Assembly (NCBI GenBank): GCA_010093605.1
Contig: MU004181.1
Coordinates: 1,302,001-1,366,000 of the forward strand
Reading direction: 5' to 3'
DNA from: Lophium mytilinum
Lineage: Eukaryota
Length of the DNA stretch: 64,000 nt
The notes under the pieces were generated by a model that saw nothing but the letters and a program-made list of their open reading frames with translations, made no database searches and was not told where the DNA came from. Below, one piece after another: positions 55,347 to 62,214 of the stretch; position 1 is the stretch's first letter, and every line of letters starts with the position of its first letter. The translations under genes were made by a program, and so were the position numbers.

Positions 55347-57168
55347 ATGAATCAGCCCTCGACAAACACTCCAATCCTCTCTGCGGGGAGTGTGCCGTCA
55401 GCCGCTGCTTCCGCCCGAGCCACCCAAGCCCAGGCGCTGAAAAGCAGCGTCCAGGCTGCGTTCAATGGTCGGTATTGCCGCGGCCTTACGCCTTCTTCCT
55501 TCTCCATAAATTTCCCGTCTTGTACCGTTGCTACCGCCCATCTATTTTGCTTTTCTGCTACTTCTTGCATCAAGAGTCCGCTTGGATAGATTGCCGTTTC
55601 CCGTAAGACAGTCGGCCTCCGCGCCTGTTCAGGAGCCCGGTCATCGATCCGCATAAAGCGAAGGAAGGTCCTTCTGTCAGTCTTTCGTGCCGCTGATCGA
55701 CGACGCGCCTAGTAGGATTTCTGCGGTGCGCCTATTTTCTTTGCAGACTCCATTGTGGATGAATATTTGTATCTGTGATATCCGGTGCTGGATTCTTCAT
55801 CACCTTTCATGTCTCCTTTGAGCTTTTCATCCATGCCTATCATCCATGCCTATTGTGTATTTTAGCTAACTCATTGTTCTTCTTCCGTGTAGACCCCTCA
55901 GATTCCTCCCAAGCTATGTTCGCAGGCTACTCCAGCAAGAAACGCGTCAATGAACGGTACCGAATCATTGGATTCATCAGCAGTGGCACTTATGGCCGGG
56001 TGTACAAGGCTCAAGGCAGACACGGCCAAATTGGAGAGTTCGCCATAAAAAAGTGATTTGCCCGAAATAAGGCCTTTTCAAGAGTCTAACGTGTTCCAGA
56101 TTCAAGCCCGACAAGGAGGGTGAAATCCAGTACACAGGAATTTCCCAGTCAGCAGTTCGGGAGATGGCACTATGTACCGAACTCGCCCATCCCAACGTCG
56201 TCCATACCGTTGAAATAATTCTGGAAGACAAGTGCATATATATCGTATTCGAGTATGCAGAACACGACTTGCTTCAGATTATACATCACCACAATCAGCC
56301 CACTCGCAGAGCTATTCCCGCACGGACATTACGATCCATCTTGCATCAGCTTCTGCAAGGCCTTCTTTATCTGCATAAGAATTGGGTCATGCATCGAGAT
56401 CTCAAACCAGCCAATATCATGGTCACTCGTGCGGGGAAGGTCAAAATTGGGGATCTCGGCCTCGCAAGACTCTTCTACAAGCCACTCCACTCTCTTTTCA
56501 CGGGCGACAAGGTCGTTGTGACTATTTGGTACCGGGCACCTGAGCTACTTCTTGGAAGCAGGCATTATACCCCTGCCGTTGATCTGTGGGCCGTCGGATG
56601 CATCTTTGCGGAACTGATTTCTCTGCGGCCGATATTCAAAGGCGAAGAAGCCAAGATGGACAGCAAGAAAACCCCGCCATTCCAACGGAACCAAATGCAA
56701 AAGATAGTTGAGGTCATTGGACTGCCAACGAAAGAGCGCTGGCCATTGCTTACCTCGATGCCCGAATACTCTCACCTTAGCGGCCTTGCTGCAGGCAATC
56801 CCCGCGTCAGTCGTCCTATAGGCCTAGAGAGCTGGTACAGGCAATGCCTCAAGAACAACCAATACCCTGAGGGCCCATCGCCTGAAACCCCGGGTGCCGA
56901 TGGCTTGTCGCTAATGCAGGGCCTCCTCGAGTACGACCCTCATAAGCGGTTGACTGCTGAAGCTGCCCTCGCGCACCCCTACTTTGCCGGGCCCATGGAA
57001 AAGCCGTTAGACAATTGCTTTGAAGGTTCTAAGATCGATTATCCGAACCGTAGAGTAAGCCAGGAAGACAACGACATCCGGACTTCGAGCTTACCAGGAA
57101 CGAAGAGGAGTGGGTTGCCAGACGACTCGTTGATAGGCAGGCCTGCGAAACGATTGAAAGAGGGCTAA
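55347..57168 (+). CDS. SSN3: Mediator kinase CDK8/Ssn3, 3 exons
   Basis: [71 protein letters not shown]. Introns 55468-55892 and about 56053-56099. An alternative start at 55916 is possible. Confidence 0.95.
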
Positions 57169-58358
57169 GGCGTGGCTAAATTGCAAGAAACTTTTGATAA
57201 AGTCGGTCGAGATTACCGAGATTGAATAGGTTGGTGCTGGATTCGATTTCGTTCAGCTCCACGAAAGCTCTATGGGATATCGTCATCGCGTTACATCAAA
57301 AGAGCATCCACAACACACATATTGCCGAGAAGATCTGTAGCCGATTTCTCTAATTGGCCAGAAAGACATGAGCTATCGAGAGCCCCTTTCAAGGTTCGGG
57401 GTTACAGTGCGGATGCATATTGTGTACAGACAGTAGAGTGTCTAAGCGAGTCCACTGAGCGGACTTTGCAATCTCCCATCACTTTTGGTTGCTCTGAAAG
57501 GAGAAATAGCTAGCCCGAAGAACGTATGATGACACGAATTGGCCGAATATAGAGCTGAGTTGTCACCCTTGGCTAGATTCATATATCACACTCAATATCT
57601 CTATACCACTCATAAATGTTTATACATCATCGACTCAATTGTCATCTTCAAAGAGCTTCTAGTTCTTACTTGAGTAATACCACAATGCAAATAGTCACTC
57701 CTGTCTGAGACGACCTAAACAAACCAAGAAGCCGAAGCATCAAAGCGAGCTCGGTATCTCAACATACTGGCCGTTCCTTCCTTTTGCATTTGGTGCTACG
57801 ATCTGTTGGGGCGGCTGTGCTGAGGTTCTCCACGTGGACAGTCAGGGTGCCTCCCCATCATTTTTAGGCAAGCAAAGTCTCCAATACAGGTAGGTATGGA
57901 GCCATCATCGTAGGTGAATGATAGATGCGGACATTGCTGCCATGATGAAGTCTCTGCCCGTGCTGCTGGTCTCTGCCCCTGAGGCCTCCGGCATCGCAGC
58001 TGTTTGAGGGAGCGGCGTGAAGAAGCTCAAATTGCCTCGACCGAGCAAGGCCGGGCAGCGCTCCGCGCGCGTGGCATCTGTTGAGGGCCGCCTGAAGCCG
58101 TTGGCCGGCTTGGCAGACTGCACTTGCTGTATATAATCTCCCCTCTTCAACGTCCTTCTTCTAACCTCCACCATCCACTCACTCTTTTCCACAACACAAT
58201 CTCTTCAACACAAACTCTCCTTCGTGTCTTCAATCCAACTGGACTGCCCTCTCCTCGAGCCGCTCCACTTGGACTACAGCCACAAACCTTCTTTTCACTC
58301 ACTTCTTTGAAACCTCGCGGGGCTATCAATCTTTGCTCACCACTTCGAGACCTTCGCC

Positions 58359-59675
58359 ATGAAGCTCACCTCGCTCGTCTCTGCCGCTGTCCTGGCCTTG
58401 GGTGTTGTTGCCCTCCCAACTCCGTCTGACGACCAGACTCAGTCGGCCCAGCCGCCCGACATCAATGACAAGCGCCTGCAGGACCAGATCATCCGAGCCC
58501 ACAACTGGATGCGTGGCCCGCACTGTGCCCAGCGTCTTACCTGGGACGACGGCCTAGCTCAAGCTGCTCTTGCCGGGACCAAGGCCTGCGGCAAAACCCT
58601 GGACCACGTACGTTAGCTCGCTTTTGAAGCTGGAGAATTGAAGCTGACCCCAATCAAGTATGACCTCGGCACCAACCTGGCTGGGCAGGGTCCTCCTCCC
58701 GCCAATCGTGAGGACTACTACTACATCACCTGGAACATTATCGCCCACAGCTGGGGCACTGAGGAAGAGGCCAAGTACGACTACAACCACCCGGGCTTCT
58801 CTGAGGACACTGGCCACTTCACCCAGGTTGTCTGGCGCGACACTTCCCGGGTTGGATGTGCCTGGAACATTTGCCCCTCAGATACTCCTTTCAATGCTCG
58901 CTTCTACTGTGGTAAGTGCGACTTGGATTCACTCTAGCGACGTGCGGTTTGAGCTAATCACCATTTCCTCCAGGCTACCACAACGCCGGCAACATCTCAC
59001 CCTTCTACCCACAGAACGTCTGGCCGCGCGTGTGTGCACCATTCCCGGAAGTCGGTGGTCGTTCCGTCGACACCTCCCCAGCTTCCCCGGCGCCTGAACA
59101 AGAAGAAGTGAACAAGCTCAAAATCCGTGCCGCTCTTGCTATGGCTCAGGACGTGTGGACGCATTCTGCCGCCGAGGACAATACGGAAAACAAAGAGCCT
59201 GGACAGGAAGAAGTGAACAAGCTTAAGATCCGTGCCGCTCATGCTATGCCCCAGGACGTGTGGACACATTCTGCCGCCAAGGACGAAACCGTCTCTCCAG
59301 ATGTCGCTCCACTGGAAGAAGCGAACAAGCTCAAGATCCGTGCCGCTCATGCTATGCCCCAGGACGTGTGGACGCATTCTGCCGCCAAGGACGAAATCGT
59401 CTCTCCGGATNNNNNNNNNNNNNNNNNNNNNNNNNNNNNNNNNNNAAGAAGCGAACAAGCTCAAGATCCGTGCCGCTCATGCTATGCCCCAGGACGTGTG
59501 GACGCATTCTGCCGCCAAGGACGAAATCGTCTCTCCGGATATCGCTCCACTCGACGAAACGAACAAGCTCACGATCCGTGCCGCTCTTCCTGTGGCCCAG
59601 GACGTGTGGACGCATTCTGCCGCTAAGGACGGAACCGTCTCTCCGAATGGGGTCGACTCCGCTCCTGTGGTCTAA
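58359..59675 (+). CDS. Secreted CAP/SCP (PR-1-like) protein with a C-terminal tandem peptide-repeat array, 3 exons, spans an assembly gap
   Basis: TATATAA at 58130; signal peptide; AHNWMR..H, LTWD, GHFTQVVWRDTSRVGCA, FYCGYHNAGN. Introns 58608-58658 and 58912-58973. Confidence 0.9.
59102..59645 (+). repeat. Coding tandem repeat, 105-108 nt unit (35-36 aa), at least 5 copies
   Basis: AACAAGCT anchor at 59111, 59216, 59324, 59454 and 59562; unit EE(V/A)NKLKIRAAHAMPQDVWTHSAAKDE(T/I)VSPD(V/I)APL. Confidence 0.95.
59411..59445. other. Assembly gap (35 N) inside the repeat array
   Basis: Run of N flanked by near-identical repeat units. Confidence 1.
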
Positions 59676-60780
59676 TCTGCAGTAAGTCTTCCATGATCGA
59701 TCAACGCTCCACCGAGACGACTTACTGATATGGCATTCCAGACTATAGCCCAGTTAGCAACTTCGGTGGTCACTACGAAGACAAGATCTGATCTCCGGTC
59801 TGCTAGTCTGTCCGCAGAGCAACCCAAATCCATTTACGCCTATCAAATGTTGTCGTGCTAGGAATTGGCAACACACTGGGTGCTGGGCAAAACGATTGAT
59901 GAATGCATGACACCCTCTCGTGGATACGAGAGTACGGTTTATGAAGTCCTCGGAGGAGCTTGAGGCAATGATTTCCTTTTCCAATTGTATATTTCCTTCT
60001 TCATATACCCTTTCGGCTCGCTTGCGACTACGTAGGTAGCCTGGCAGCTCTTCAACACGGAGGCTAGACGGGGAATACATAGCGAATGCAATGGGTGTCC
60101 ACAAATGAATTTCAAATATGCATTGAGTGCTCCTTCGTGATTCTACTCTTCAGCCCCGCATACACTGCGATCTGATAGGTATAGTGGCTTGCTGTGCACT
60201 TCCCTACCATTGTTTGAGGGGCTCCAACTTGCGCTTAGAAACCAGGGACGGCGGATACGCTTTGAATCCGTGTACATCATGTCGACATTGTCCGGAGTAG
60301 TCTCCGTGGTTTACTAGCTGTCCAAAATGCCGTACTTTTCCCTTGTTCGGAACGGTGAAACGACCATGGGGCTCCTCAAGCAGTGGTAGTCAGGTGTACG
60401 GGTTTATATGATGAGCTATTGTATTCGAGATCTAGAGCACATGAGTCACTGGGGAGGAAGTGATACACTACAAGCTAGACTTTGAGCTTTCAATTCGCGA
60501 TGCACTACTGATTTATGCAATACTCTTCTGAGACTCTGCTCAACGATATTTGCACCACTATCTTTGTTGACAAACCATCTACACCTGTTGAAATACGGAA
60601 ACCCATACCCTCCGTTAGGAGGGGGTTGATTCTTCTGATATAGGCTACAGATGGGTTTGTTTCAAACAGCTTGTCTCATCCGATATTGTTTGGGGTTTTT
60701 CAGTCCAACAACACCCTCATATGCCAACAACCCATGCTACCGACTCTATTTCCCAACCCAACGCACATCGCTATGCAAAC

Positions 60781-62214
60781 CTACGACCAGGAAATCCTAA
60801 ACACACTCAAGTCAGCAAAACTCCACTCCACACACCAGAAAGAGAACCTACGCAAGCATGATCCCCGCTCCCGTAAACATGGCCAAAAACTGCGTCAACG
60901 TCTTCCGCAACTCCTCCCCCTTATTCGGTCCCGTCTCCAACAACTCCGGAATCACCGCGACAGTCCCCACATACAAAAACGTCCCCGCCGTGAACGGCAG
61001 CAACATGTCGCCCCACTGCAGACTCGTGCCATACAGCCCCGCCTGTACCTCGCCTCCTACAGAACCGCTCGACCCCCCGAATTCTTGCACCGCGATACCG
61101 ATGCATGTCCCGAGGAAGGCGCCGATGGCGGTGACGAACTGCGCGCCCATGGCGGCGCGCTTGGAGAAGCCGGATTGGATGAGCAGGGCGAAGTCGCCGA
61201 CTTCGTGGGGGATTTCGTGGAAGAAGACGGCGACGGTGGTGGTGGCGCCGATGGTGGGGCTGGCGTAGAAGGAGGAGGAGAGGGCCAGGCCGTCGGTGAT
61301 GTTGTGCGTGAAGTCGGCGATGAGGTTGAGGTAGCCGCCCAGTTTGGCGGAGGGGTTTACTTCTTTGGTGGGAGGGGCGGGGAGGGGGGTGTCTTTGGTG
61401 GGCTTACGGGAGCGGAGGGTGGAGGAGTCTGAGGTGACGAAGAGGAGTTAGTGTTTGTGGGTTTGAAGAGAGGGAATTGGGGGAGGACGTACCCTTCTTG
61501 TCAATGCCGCTGGCGGCGGCCTTCTCGCCGCCTTCGACTTTGCCGTGGGCGTGGCTGTGATCGTGGGGATCTTCGCCGCCGGTAGCAATTCGCAGACCTT
61601 TGTCCATGGCTACGAAGGTCAGGAAGCCGACCATGATGGCTACGCCGAGAATGAGGTTCTTGTTGGGCTCCACCATGACGAATCGGACGTGCTCTTCTGC
61701 ATCTTCGCCGAGGAATATCTCAGGGAGAAGGTGGAATAGGGTATCTCCAAGCAGCCCTCCTACAGCGAAAGCCACCATAACGCTGAGGGAGGATGGATCT
61801 ATATTTGGAGGGCATAATGCAAGTAGGAAATTAGGTGGCCCGGAGATGTAGAGGGTTGCGAGCAATGCGTTGACTGCTGGGCTACCGGGGAAGAGGACGG
61901 CGAATATACGAGAGGTTACGCTCGAGGTTGGTGGGTGGGTAGCGACTTTGTGCTGGTTGAGAGCTTGCACGAGGGGGCATTCCTGTTGTGATGTGTGAGC
62001 TTGAATCAGAGATTTTGTATAGAGCTAGTATGGAGCGTCTCAAAGAGTTTGGATGACACAATTGAGAAAGCTGTACCTGGAGCTTATCCTCGATCTCGGC
62101 GACGCTCAACGATGCCACAGAAACATCTTTACTTTCGAAAATGTGAGCGTACGTCTGGCACACGAGGAGCAGTGCAATAACTGCACAAAGCAGCAGTGAT
62201 ATGCGGGAGGGCAT
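60781..62214 (-). CDS. YKE4: ZIP family (ZIP7/Ke4-like) ER zinc transporter, 4 exons
   Basis: VAFAVGGLLGDTLFHLLPE, His-rich HDHSHAH loop, GYLNLIADFTHNITDGLA, FFHEIPHEVGDF (CHEXPHE motif), LPFTAGTFLYV; last mini-exon ISWS*. Confidence 0.92.

Follow-up and report, generated by a model that had tools for sequence, protein, structure and literature searches.

A CAP/PR-1-like gene of Lophium mytilinum with a tandem array of putative kexin- and Ste13-processed peptide units

Why should a fungal gene for a secreted CAP/PR-1 protein continue into a tandem array of nearly identical units, each headed by signals resembling those of pheromone precursors? The question is raised by a gene of the wood fungus Lophium mytilinum (GenBank assembly GCA_010093605.1, contig MU004181.1, positions 1,302,001 to 1,366,000 of the forward strand; this 64,000-nucleotide stretch is called the window, and positions below are counted within it). 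The coding sequence runs on the + strand from 58359 (ATG) to 59675 (TAA) in three exons. A preliminary description, made from the sequence alone, had read the gene as a CAP protein fused to a pheromone-style array of peptides that would be excised by Kex2 and trimmed by Ste13. Having followed up this description computationally, we consider the odds about even that the gene encodes a small polyprotein, yielding a CAP protein plus several peptides through kexin/Ste13-type processing.

Downstream of the last cysteine of the CAP fold and a linker, at least five tandem units of 35-36 aa were found, beginning (at NKL) at 59111, 59216, 59324, 59454 and 59562. Each unit consists of NKL(K/T)IR, three X-Ala/Pro dipeptides, the core QDVWTHSAA and an acidic, Pro-containing spacer, and each contains two His and several Asp/Glu residues; the final portion of the linker (VDTSPASPAPEQEEV) is already similar to the repeat spacer. 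Tandem Repeats Finder reported the array in three rows, with a period of 105/108 nt, matches of 86-90% and scores of 333-433. The preliminary account of the unit was borne out in every particular: five copies are visible where at least five had been claimed, LxxR is retained throughout (LKIR in four copies, LTIR in one), the hexapeptides that follow (AALAMA, three times AAHAMP, and AALPVA) have Ala or Pro at each second position, and QDVWTHSAA is identical in 5/5 window copies.

The reading frame is open across all visible copies. Among the nine core codons, two synonymous and no non-synonymous variants were observed in the five window copies. The NKLxIR block contains two synonymous variants and a single K-to-T change at P3, and within the first 21 codons the remaining amino-acid changes all fall in the hexapeptide. 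These observations support the action of protein-level constraint on the array in the CAP reading frame.

The QDVW unit also occurs in a second protein of the same genome. P0002, a 494-aa hypothetical protein, begins with a signal-like N-terminus and comprises five modules of about 45 aa that are rich in Cys (Cys pattern roughly CxxC-x6-C-x3-C-x5/6-C-x3-C-x4-C-x5-C...), along with three QDVW units, which sit between modules 4 and 5. It has no Pfam match, and a PDB sequence search returned no matches at E≤1. LxxR occurs in P0002 eight times (LDQR, LHQR, LSTR, LSKR, LLKR, LTIR, LTIR, LNHR), against a mean of 0.93 in shuffled sequences, and 0/20000 shuffles reached eight; outside the QDVW units the count was five against a mean of 0.48, again with 0/20000 shuffles reaching it. 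The sites lie ahead of Cys-rich modules 1-4, ahead of all three QDVW units and after module 5, with none between the third QDVW unit and module 5. Two of the eight are canonical dibasic sites (LSKR and LLKR), and LLKR, which heads the first of the three QDVW units, directly precedes AALPMA-QDVWT in the same register as LKIR in the CAP gene. P0002 thus has the appearance of a polyprotein from which several small, disulfide-rich peptides would be released. The P0002 locus also appeared as the loose end of record 10 from DNA run X2, at window position 59313.

Comparison of the two paralogous arrays, which have a DVWT core in common, gave eight copies (five in the window, three in P0002). P4 is Leu and P1 is Arg in every copy, with K/T/L at P3 and I/K at P2. 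Five different hexapeptides occur (AALAMA, AAHAMP, AALPVA, AALPMA and AALAMP), each of which keeps the X-[AP] phase. Ala occupies positions 1 and 2, residues vary at positions 3 (L/H) and 5 (M/V), and positions 4 and 6 alternate between Ala and Pro only, where by a back-of-envelope estimate the chance of a change hitting the other permitted residue is about 1 in 6 each. In 8/8 copies the three X-[AP] dipeptides are followed by Q-D (once E-D). The phasing that the preliminary description had proposed to seek in homologues was kept in 3/3 copies of P0002, the one paralog on which it can be examined because the unit occurs nowhere else searched. Such a pattern is the one expected of kexin/Ste13-type signals, and together with the LxxR sites of P0002, the most informative finding of the analysis, it lends the proposed processing indirect support.

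The part of the gene ahead of the array encodes a CAP protein. Pfam CAP (PF00188) matched residues 46-160 of the deposited protein P0001 ('PR-1-like protein [Lophium mytilinum]', 369 aa), to which the gene is 100% identical, with an E-value of 7.1e-16 and 59.6 bits against a cut-off of 21.1, spanning profile positions 2-110 of 117; the individual translations of exon 1 and exon 2 matched with E-values of 3.5e-4 and 1.8e-8. A PDB sequence search returned 14 distinct sequences at E≤1e-3, and the nearest solved relative was the CAP domain of yeast Pry1 (5jys_A, E 3.3e-15; 5ete, 4e-15; residues 20/34-185). By these matches the protein is assigned to the CAP/PR-1/SCP superfamily, with a Pry1-like CAP domain. 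None of the ten Arg residues in the CAP part of P0001 lies in an LxxR motif. CAPE-type peptides follow a consensus of a CNYx cleavage motif and then PxGNxxxxxPY; the corresponding stretch of P0001 reads CGYH-NAGNISPFYP, a partial resemblance by eye. An AlphaFold2 model of P0001 built without an alignment was unusable (mean pLDDT 32.4), and no structural reading was drawn from it.

The N-terminus, MKLTSLVSAAVLALGVVAL (about 58359-58415, exon 1), is hydrophobic and was judged by eye to be a putative signal peptide. Between it and the CAP domain lies a Pro/Gln/Asp-rich stretch with KR at 58470-58475 (residues 38-39), which could close a short N-terminal pro-piece removed by Kex2; the Mytilinidion ortholog described below has AR at this place.

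Contigs from three sequencing runs were compared with the gene. X1 and X2 are DNA runs. None of the runs listed with the gene is recorded as RNA; X3, from another study, bears that label as a guess and was taken as RNA because its contigs contain three spliced joints. Introns 1 and 2 were excised exactly at the modelled borders in one X3 contig and retained in X1 and X2; neither their joints nor that of an intron in the 3′ untranslated region (UTR) occurred in the DNA runs. This contig (record 16) covers 58250-59254 and runs unbroken through the CAP exons into copy 2 with both introns out, while a second X3 contig (record 20) includes copy 5, the stop codon and the spliced 3′ UTR, spanning 59511-59681 and resuming at 59742. 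The middle of the array was bridged by no contig of X1, X2 or X3. For the parts that contigs cover, the gene is expressed as a spliced transcript. The claim of a complete secreted CAP domain followed by the repeat array agrees with the PF00188 match, the spliced contigs and the signal peptide seen by eye, and the repeats lie in the mRNA frame where contigs cover them, from the CAP region to copy 2 and from copy 4/5 to the 3′ UTR, each on one spliced RNA-like contig.

The preliminary description was silent on the two introns and on a 35-N assembly gap inside the array, as it was on the splicing of the deposited P0001 model across this gap. That splice creates a chimeric repeat (…KDEI|DVWTHS…) and leaves P0001 with one LxxR site fewer than the DNA. 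A seamless join of copies 3 and 4 requires 13 nt, or 13 + 108k nt, and not 35; the 35 N are hence an arbitrary figure, and the frame shift is an artefact. No contig of X1 or X3 covers the gap, and the contigs of both DNA runs end inside the array at 59254. In X1 and X2, the depth of contigs common to copies 3 and 4 was about 2.2-2.7 times that of the flanks; by this rough guide zero or one copy is hidden, giving a total of five, perhaps six. Two air-metagenome runs share 5-6% of the gene's words, from which nothing was concluded.

If the gene does encode a polyprotein, its product would enter the secretory pathway by way of the putative signal peptide, and a presumed kexin of the Kex2 type would cut after each LxxR (four LKIR, one LTIR) in the late Golgi. 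Cutting would free a Pry1-like CAP protein ending in ...EEVNKLKI(R), along with five (perhaps six) repeat units. A presumed dipeptidyl aminopeptidase (DPAP) of the Ste13 type would strip the three X-Ala/X-Pro dipeptides and halt at Gln-Asp, because Q-D is not an X-A/P pair, and Kex1 may take off the C-terminal Arg. The products would be four or five 29-aa peptides and a last one of 25 aa, beginning with (pyro)Gln-DVWTHSAA. The predicted peptides have an isoelectric point of about 4.2 and a net charge of about -4, and are hydrophilic and not amphipathic. Since they would be neither cationic nor amphipathic, a signalling or competitor-directed role is favoured over a membrane-active one. The QDVW unit would be a cassette with its own cutting and trimming signals, common to two precursor genes of one fungus, and an ancestral CAP gene would have gained it once the lineage had diverged from Mytilinidion.

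Several points weigh against this scheme. Every proteolytic step, the formation of pyroglutamate and the activity of the peptides are read from motifs only. None of the five sites in the CAP gene is dibasic (P2 is Ile), and LKIR/LTIR may be poor Kex2 substrates because the yeast Kex2 pattern is described, in the portion of the source available, as Leu at P4, Lys/Arg at P2 and Arg at P1 (bioRxiv 10.1101/2020.05.27.120113). Conservation is judged on one paralog from the same genome, with few independent substitutions, and gene conversion or a recent duplication could keep the two arrays alike without selection. The N-terminal Gln is Glu in one of the eight copies, and the P0002 cores differ (QDVWTPSAA, EDVWTHSTA, QDVWTHSAV). 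The unit may be young and of little consequence, since it was found in no other organism. Finally, the predicted peptides are unlike the known pheromones, repellents and antimicrobial peptides of fungi.

When the exon-3 translation (145 aa) was run with phmmer against 1.84 billion cluster representatives, two matches were obtained at E≤1e-3, P0002 and P0003. P0002, which lacks a CAP domain, was the sole other protein with the unit. P0003, the ortholog, a 216-aa 'PR-1-like protein' of Mytilinidion resinicola, matched the CAP tail only (query residues 1-40 of exon 3); it is 72% identical across the CAP part, has no array and stops soon after ...IDTSPAP. In JGI metagenome contigs, 253 pattern matches to three repeat units were obtained, none of them confirmed by tblastn. 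ESM Atlas searches with the P0001 tail and the Cys-rich part of P0002 gave no usable feature match, with structural TM scores all ≤0.32, and word-index searches for long CAP relatives returned one hagfish protein in one case and six proteins in another. As far as these data reach, the unit is an orphan of Lophium mytilinum. Two candidate traces of its origin were dropped. The CAP tail at 59009-59032 (YPQNVWPRV) has P-Q-[ND]-V-W in common with the repeat (MPQDVWTHS), and derivation of the core from this tail (PQNVWPRV against PQDVWTHS) was set aside, since by a rough estimate a match of this extent has about even odds of arising by chance. A relic of the ancestral C-terminus in the 3′ UTR, YSPVSNFGGHYEDKI with a stop (59744-59791, out of frame) against SNDGHYKA with a stop in the ortholog, was not significant (shuffle p about 0.12).

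The polyprotein reading, still a hypothesis, is the best at hand and can be set against its competitors. The array might be an uncleaved, largely disordered C-terminal tail that provides spacing, tethers the protein to the wall or surface, or binds a ligand or metal, with LxxR and the A/P pattern as mere features of an ancestral repeated unit. Extensions outside any domain are known from fungal CAP proteins (PMC3447762, PMC10505147), the CAP gene lacks dibasic sites, and the tail has no above-threshold Pfam match at E≤1; the two His and the acidic residues of each unit, together with the adjoining ZIP gene, are a loose hint of metal binding. Such a tail leaves unexplained the invariant L(P4) and R(P1) beside variable P3 and P2, the Ala/Pro-only switching at even positions of the hexapeptide, and the presence of the unit in a paralog bounded by LxxR sites that include LSKR and LLKR, and we consider it rather unlikely. 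Alternatively, the protein could be cut at LxxR and the units be by-products, a pro-region or spacer that aids the folding, secretion or dosage of the CAP protein. The Mytilinidion ortholog does without the units, the predicted peptides lack the features of known bioactive classes, and pro-domains that aid folding and are removed by Kex2 are described for fungal effectors in the available part of bioRxiv 10.1101/2020.05.27.120113. However, those pro-domains are single and N-terminal rather than C-terminal arrays, conservation within the unit is strongest in the core, with which the trimmed peptide would begin (no non-synonymous change in five copies), and a trimming signal on waste would have no obvious purpose, making this explanation improbable.

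That a P0002-type repeat block landed at the 3′ end of the CAP gene and is carried without function, as a young neutral fusion or an assembly or annotation artefact, appears decidedly improbable. The array is missing from the Mytilinidion ortholog and from all else searched, it contains an unresolved gap and a middle unbridged by contigs, and the deposited model was spliced over that gap, all of which would fit. Yet contigs from each of the three runs, DNA and RNA-like (X1, X2 and X3; records 1, 9 and 16), cross the junction between CAP domain and array with no mismatch, the frame is open in all visible copies with only synonymous change in the core, and the CAP-gene and P0002 arrays are 62-77% identical, depending on the search and span compared, and are therefore not very recent copies, but have kept the motifs. 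A signal peptide and a repeated core with protease sites are also the precursor layout of the ustiloxin/dikaritin-type ribosomally made, post-translationally modified peptides (RiPPs), as described in the portion available of PMC7329392. This assignment is highly improbable, because a scan of 77 of the 82 stop-to-stop open reading frames of at least 90 aa between 38 and 64 kb returned no domain of the DUF3328/UstYa, tyrosinase or methyltransferase type (the other five overlap the CAP gene itself; 4.3 kb downstream are covered, and intron-split genes may be missed). In addition, the neighbours encode a protein kinase, a ZIP transporter, Nop16 and a sugar transporter, and the core has neither Tyr nor KR sites.

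The gene was then compared with known systems, as these are described in the available portions of the sources cited. Kex2-processed repeat proteins (KEPs) are a described and very diverse class (PMC6339444, PMC7329392), and those of the alpha-pheromone type, with some others, bear a Ste13 signature in the form of X-Ala/X-Pro runs past the Kex2 site (PMC6339444). Like KEPs and alpha-factor precursors, the CAP gene appears to encode a secreted precursor with near-identical tandem units and a kexin-type site ahead of each, and like the alpha-pheromone type it has a run of X-Ala/X-Pro dipeptides after the sites (8/8 copies including P0002). KEP surveys define the site as KR/RR/KK (PMC6339444), whereas the CAP gene has only LKIR/LTIR and fits the class only by the extended LxxR motif; pipelines based on KR/RR/KK would miss it for this reason. 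In contrast to KEPs, including those of the alpha-pheromone type, the array here follows a folded CAP domain, and with units of 35-36 aa the predicted peptides measure 25-29 aa rather than 9-13. No Pfam MF_alpha or MF_alpha_N match at E≤1 was obtained in the exon translations or P0001, and alpha-pheromone precursors were not among the phmmer matches, a search in which no direct comparison with named precursors was made.

The closest documented architectural precedent for a domain joined to Kex2-type repeats is Hum3 of Ustilago maydis, in which 17 imperfect tandem repeats of 31-36 aa, 14 of them separated by putative Kex2 motifs, accompany a hydrophobin domain (PMC4617103). Processing into peptides by Kex2 has been demonstrated for the repeats of Rep1 (PMC4617103), and the available portion of PMC6339444 reports no Ste13 signature for Rep1. 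The CAP gene resembles Hum3 in joining a folded secreted domain to repeats of similar length in one protein. It differs in that its repeats follow the domain, while those of Hum3 precede it, and in that the domain is CAP rather than hydrophobin; nor are its units amphipathic like the repeats of Hum3 and Rep1, to which phmmer found no sequence similarity. The statement that no precursor of this kind had been described goes too far: KEPs and Hum3 are precedents. In Table S2 of PMC7329392, which lists 7878 KEPs, four rows carry the HMM profile 'CAP', undiscussed in the main text, and PHH90556.1 (Cordyceps sp.) and OJD18287.1 (Emergomyces pasteurianus) are two of them. Judging from the table labels alone, these rows may be CAP-plus-repeat precursors with dibasic sites, already flagged computationally. 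A literature search found no work joining a fungal CAP domain to Kex2-type tandem repeats and nothing linking Lophium mytilinum to Kex2, and 'Lophium', 'Mytilinidion' and 'DVWT' are all absent from the supplements of PMC6339444.

Monobasic sites of the same form are known from effectors with a Kex2-removed pro-domain (K2PP effectors). SnTox3, ToxA and FolSIX1/4/6 are reported to have LxxR, with Leu at P4, Arg at P1 and free P3/P2, at their pro-domain junctions (bioRxiv 10.1101/2020.05.27.120113; PMC8528282), and these proteins were cut by yeast Kex2 in vitro (bioRxiv 10.1101/2020.05.27.120113). The CAP gene likewise has Leu at P4, Arg at P1 and free P3/P2 in a disordered, acidic context; K2PP effectors, unlike it, have a single N-terminal pro-domain, no C-terminal array and no dipeptide run. 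Peptide release from CAP proteins has been described for plant CAPE and for U. maydis UmPR-1La, in each case as one peptide, with the CNYD site cut by a plant protease (PMC10505147). Here too a CAP protein would be the carrier of a putatively released peptide; in contrast to CAPE, the putative peptides derive from an added array with fungal secretory-pathway signals and not from the end of the CAP fold. As to extensions, MpPR-1g has a KEKE-rich and MpPR-1b a Ser/Thr/Pro-rich C-terminal extension (PMC3447762), and UmPR-1La and yeast Pry1 have a Ser/Thr-rich region for cell-surface display (PMC10505147); that of Pry1 is N-terminal and, unlike the CAP gene, Pry1 has no C-terminal repeat array.

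The coordinates of the gene's features are collected in Table 1. Upstream of the CAP gene lies a Ser/Thr protein kinase gene (56071-57165, + strand), and downstream, tail-to-tail with it, a ZIP zinc transporter gene (60851-62024, - strand). Between 38121 and 54291, Pfam identified a Glu/Gln-tRNA synthetase, DnaJ, a GH75 chitosanase, a HET-domain protein, a GH10 xylanase, GTP cyclohydrolase II and a sugar transporter of the major facilitator superfamily. The neighbourhood is an ordinary mix of housekeeping and secreted-enzyme genes, with no biosynthetic cluster.

Table 1. Features of the CAP gene and its repeat array (window positions)
Feature	Position	Strand	Details
Possible TATA box TATATAAT	58130-58137	+	about 220 nt upstream of ATG; by eye
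Exon 1	58359-58607	+	83 codons; 3′ end confirmed by X3 joint 58607->58659
Intron 1	58608-58658	+	51 nt, GTACGT..AG, CTGAC branch-like site
Exon 2	58659-58911	+	CAP core including GHFTQVVW
Intron 2	58912-58973	+	62 nt, GTAAGT..AG, phase 1; X3 joint 58910->58973 (cut +1)
Exon 3	58974-59675	+	ends in TAA
Exon 3 start	58974-59110	+	end of CAP fold (to Cys 59033-59035), then Pro/Ser-rich linker ...VDTSPASPAPEQEEV
Copy 1	59111-59215	+	35 aa; LKIR 59117-59128, AA-LA-MA 59129-59146, QDVWTHSAA 59147-59173, spacer EDNTENKEPGQEEV
Copy 2	59216-59323	+	36 aa; LKIR 59222-59233, AA-HA-MP 59234-59251, QDVWTHSAA 59252-59278
Copy 3, truncated by gap	59324-59410	+	LKIR 59330-59341, AA-HA-MP 59342-59359, QDVWTHSAA 59360-59386
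Assembly gap, 35 N	59411-59445		between copies 3 and 4, inside coding array
Copy 4	59448-59561	+	NKL 59454, LKIR 59460-59471, AA-HA-MP 59472-59489, QDVWTHSAA 59490-59516
Copy 5 and stop	59562-59675	+	LTIR 59568-59579, AA-LP-VA 59580-59597, QDVWTHSAA 59598-59624, tail KDGTVSPNGVDSAPVV, TAA 59673-59675
3′ UTR intron	59682-59741	+	60 nt, GTAAGT..AG, 6 nt past stop; joint 59681->59742, one X3 contig

The gene stands out by its putative CAP carrier, by the combination of monobasic LxxR punctuation with a clean Ste13 signature, and by the occurrence of the unit, as an apparent cassette, in two unrelated precursor genes. A bolder proposal, possible but doubtful, is that the QDVW unit is a portable peptide cassette (kexin site, dipeptidyl-aminopeptidase run and core) that moved between two unrelated secreted-protein genes, one for a CAP protein and one for a Cys-rich polyprotein. 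Ordinary secreted proteins would then act as carriers that co-deliver a new peptide signal at fixed stoichiometry, and the gene, together with P0002, would point to a hidden class of monobasic-LxxR repeat precursors unseen by KR/RR/KK surveys.

The case is confined to one saprobic species, and its value lies mainly in being a testable example rather than the answer to a long-standing question. If the proposed processing is true, a CAP/PR-1 protein could carry several copies of a secreted peptide that the fungus produces with proteases of its own secretory pathway, a situation different from the single CAPE-type peptide that a plant protease cuts from the CAP fold. LxxR-only sites could then punctuate repeat precursors, and surveys for KR/RR/KK would underestimate the number of fungal peptide precursors. 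Transfer of such a cassette between genes, processing signals included, could also occur and would offer a simple route to new secreted signals.

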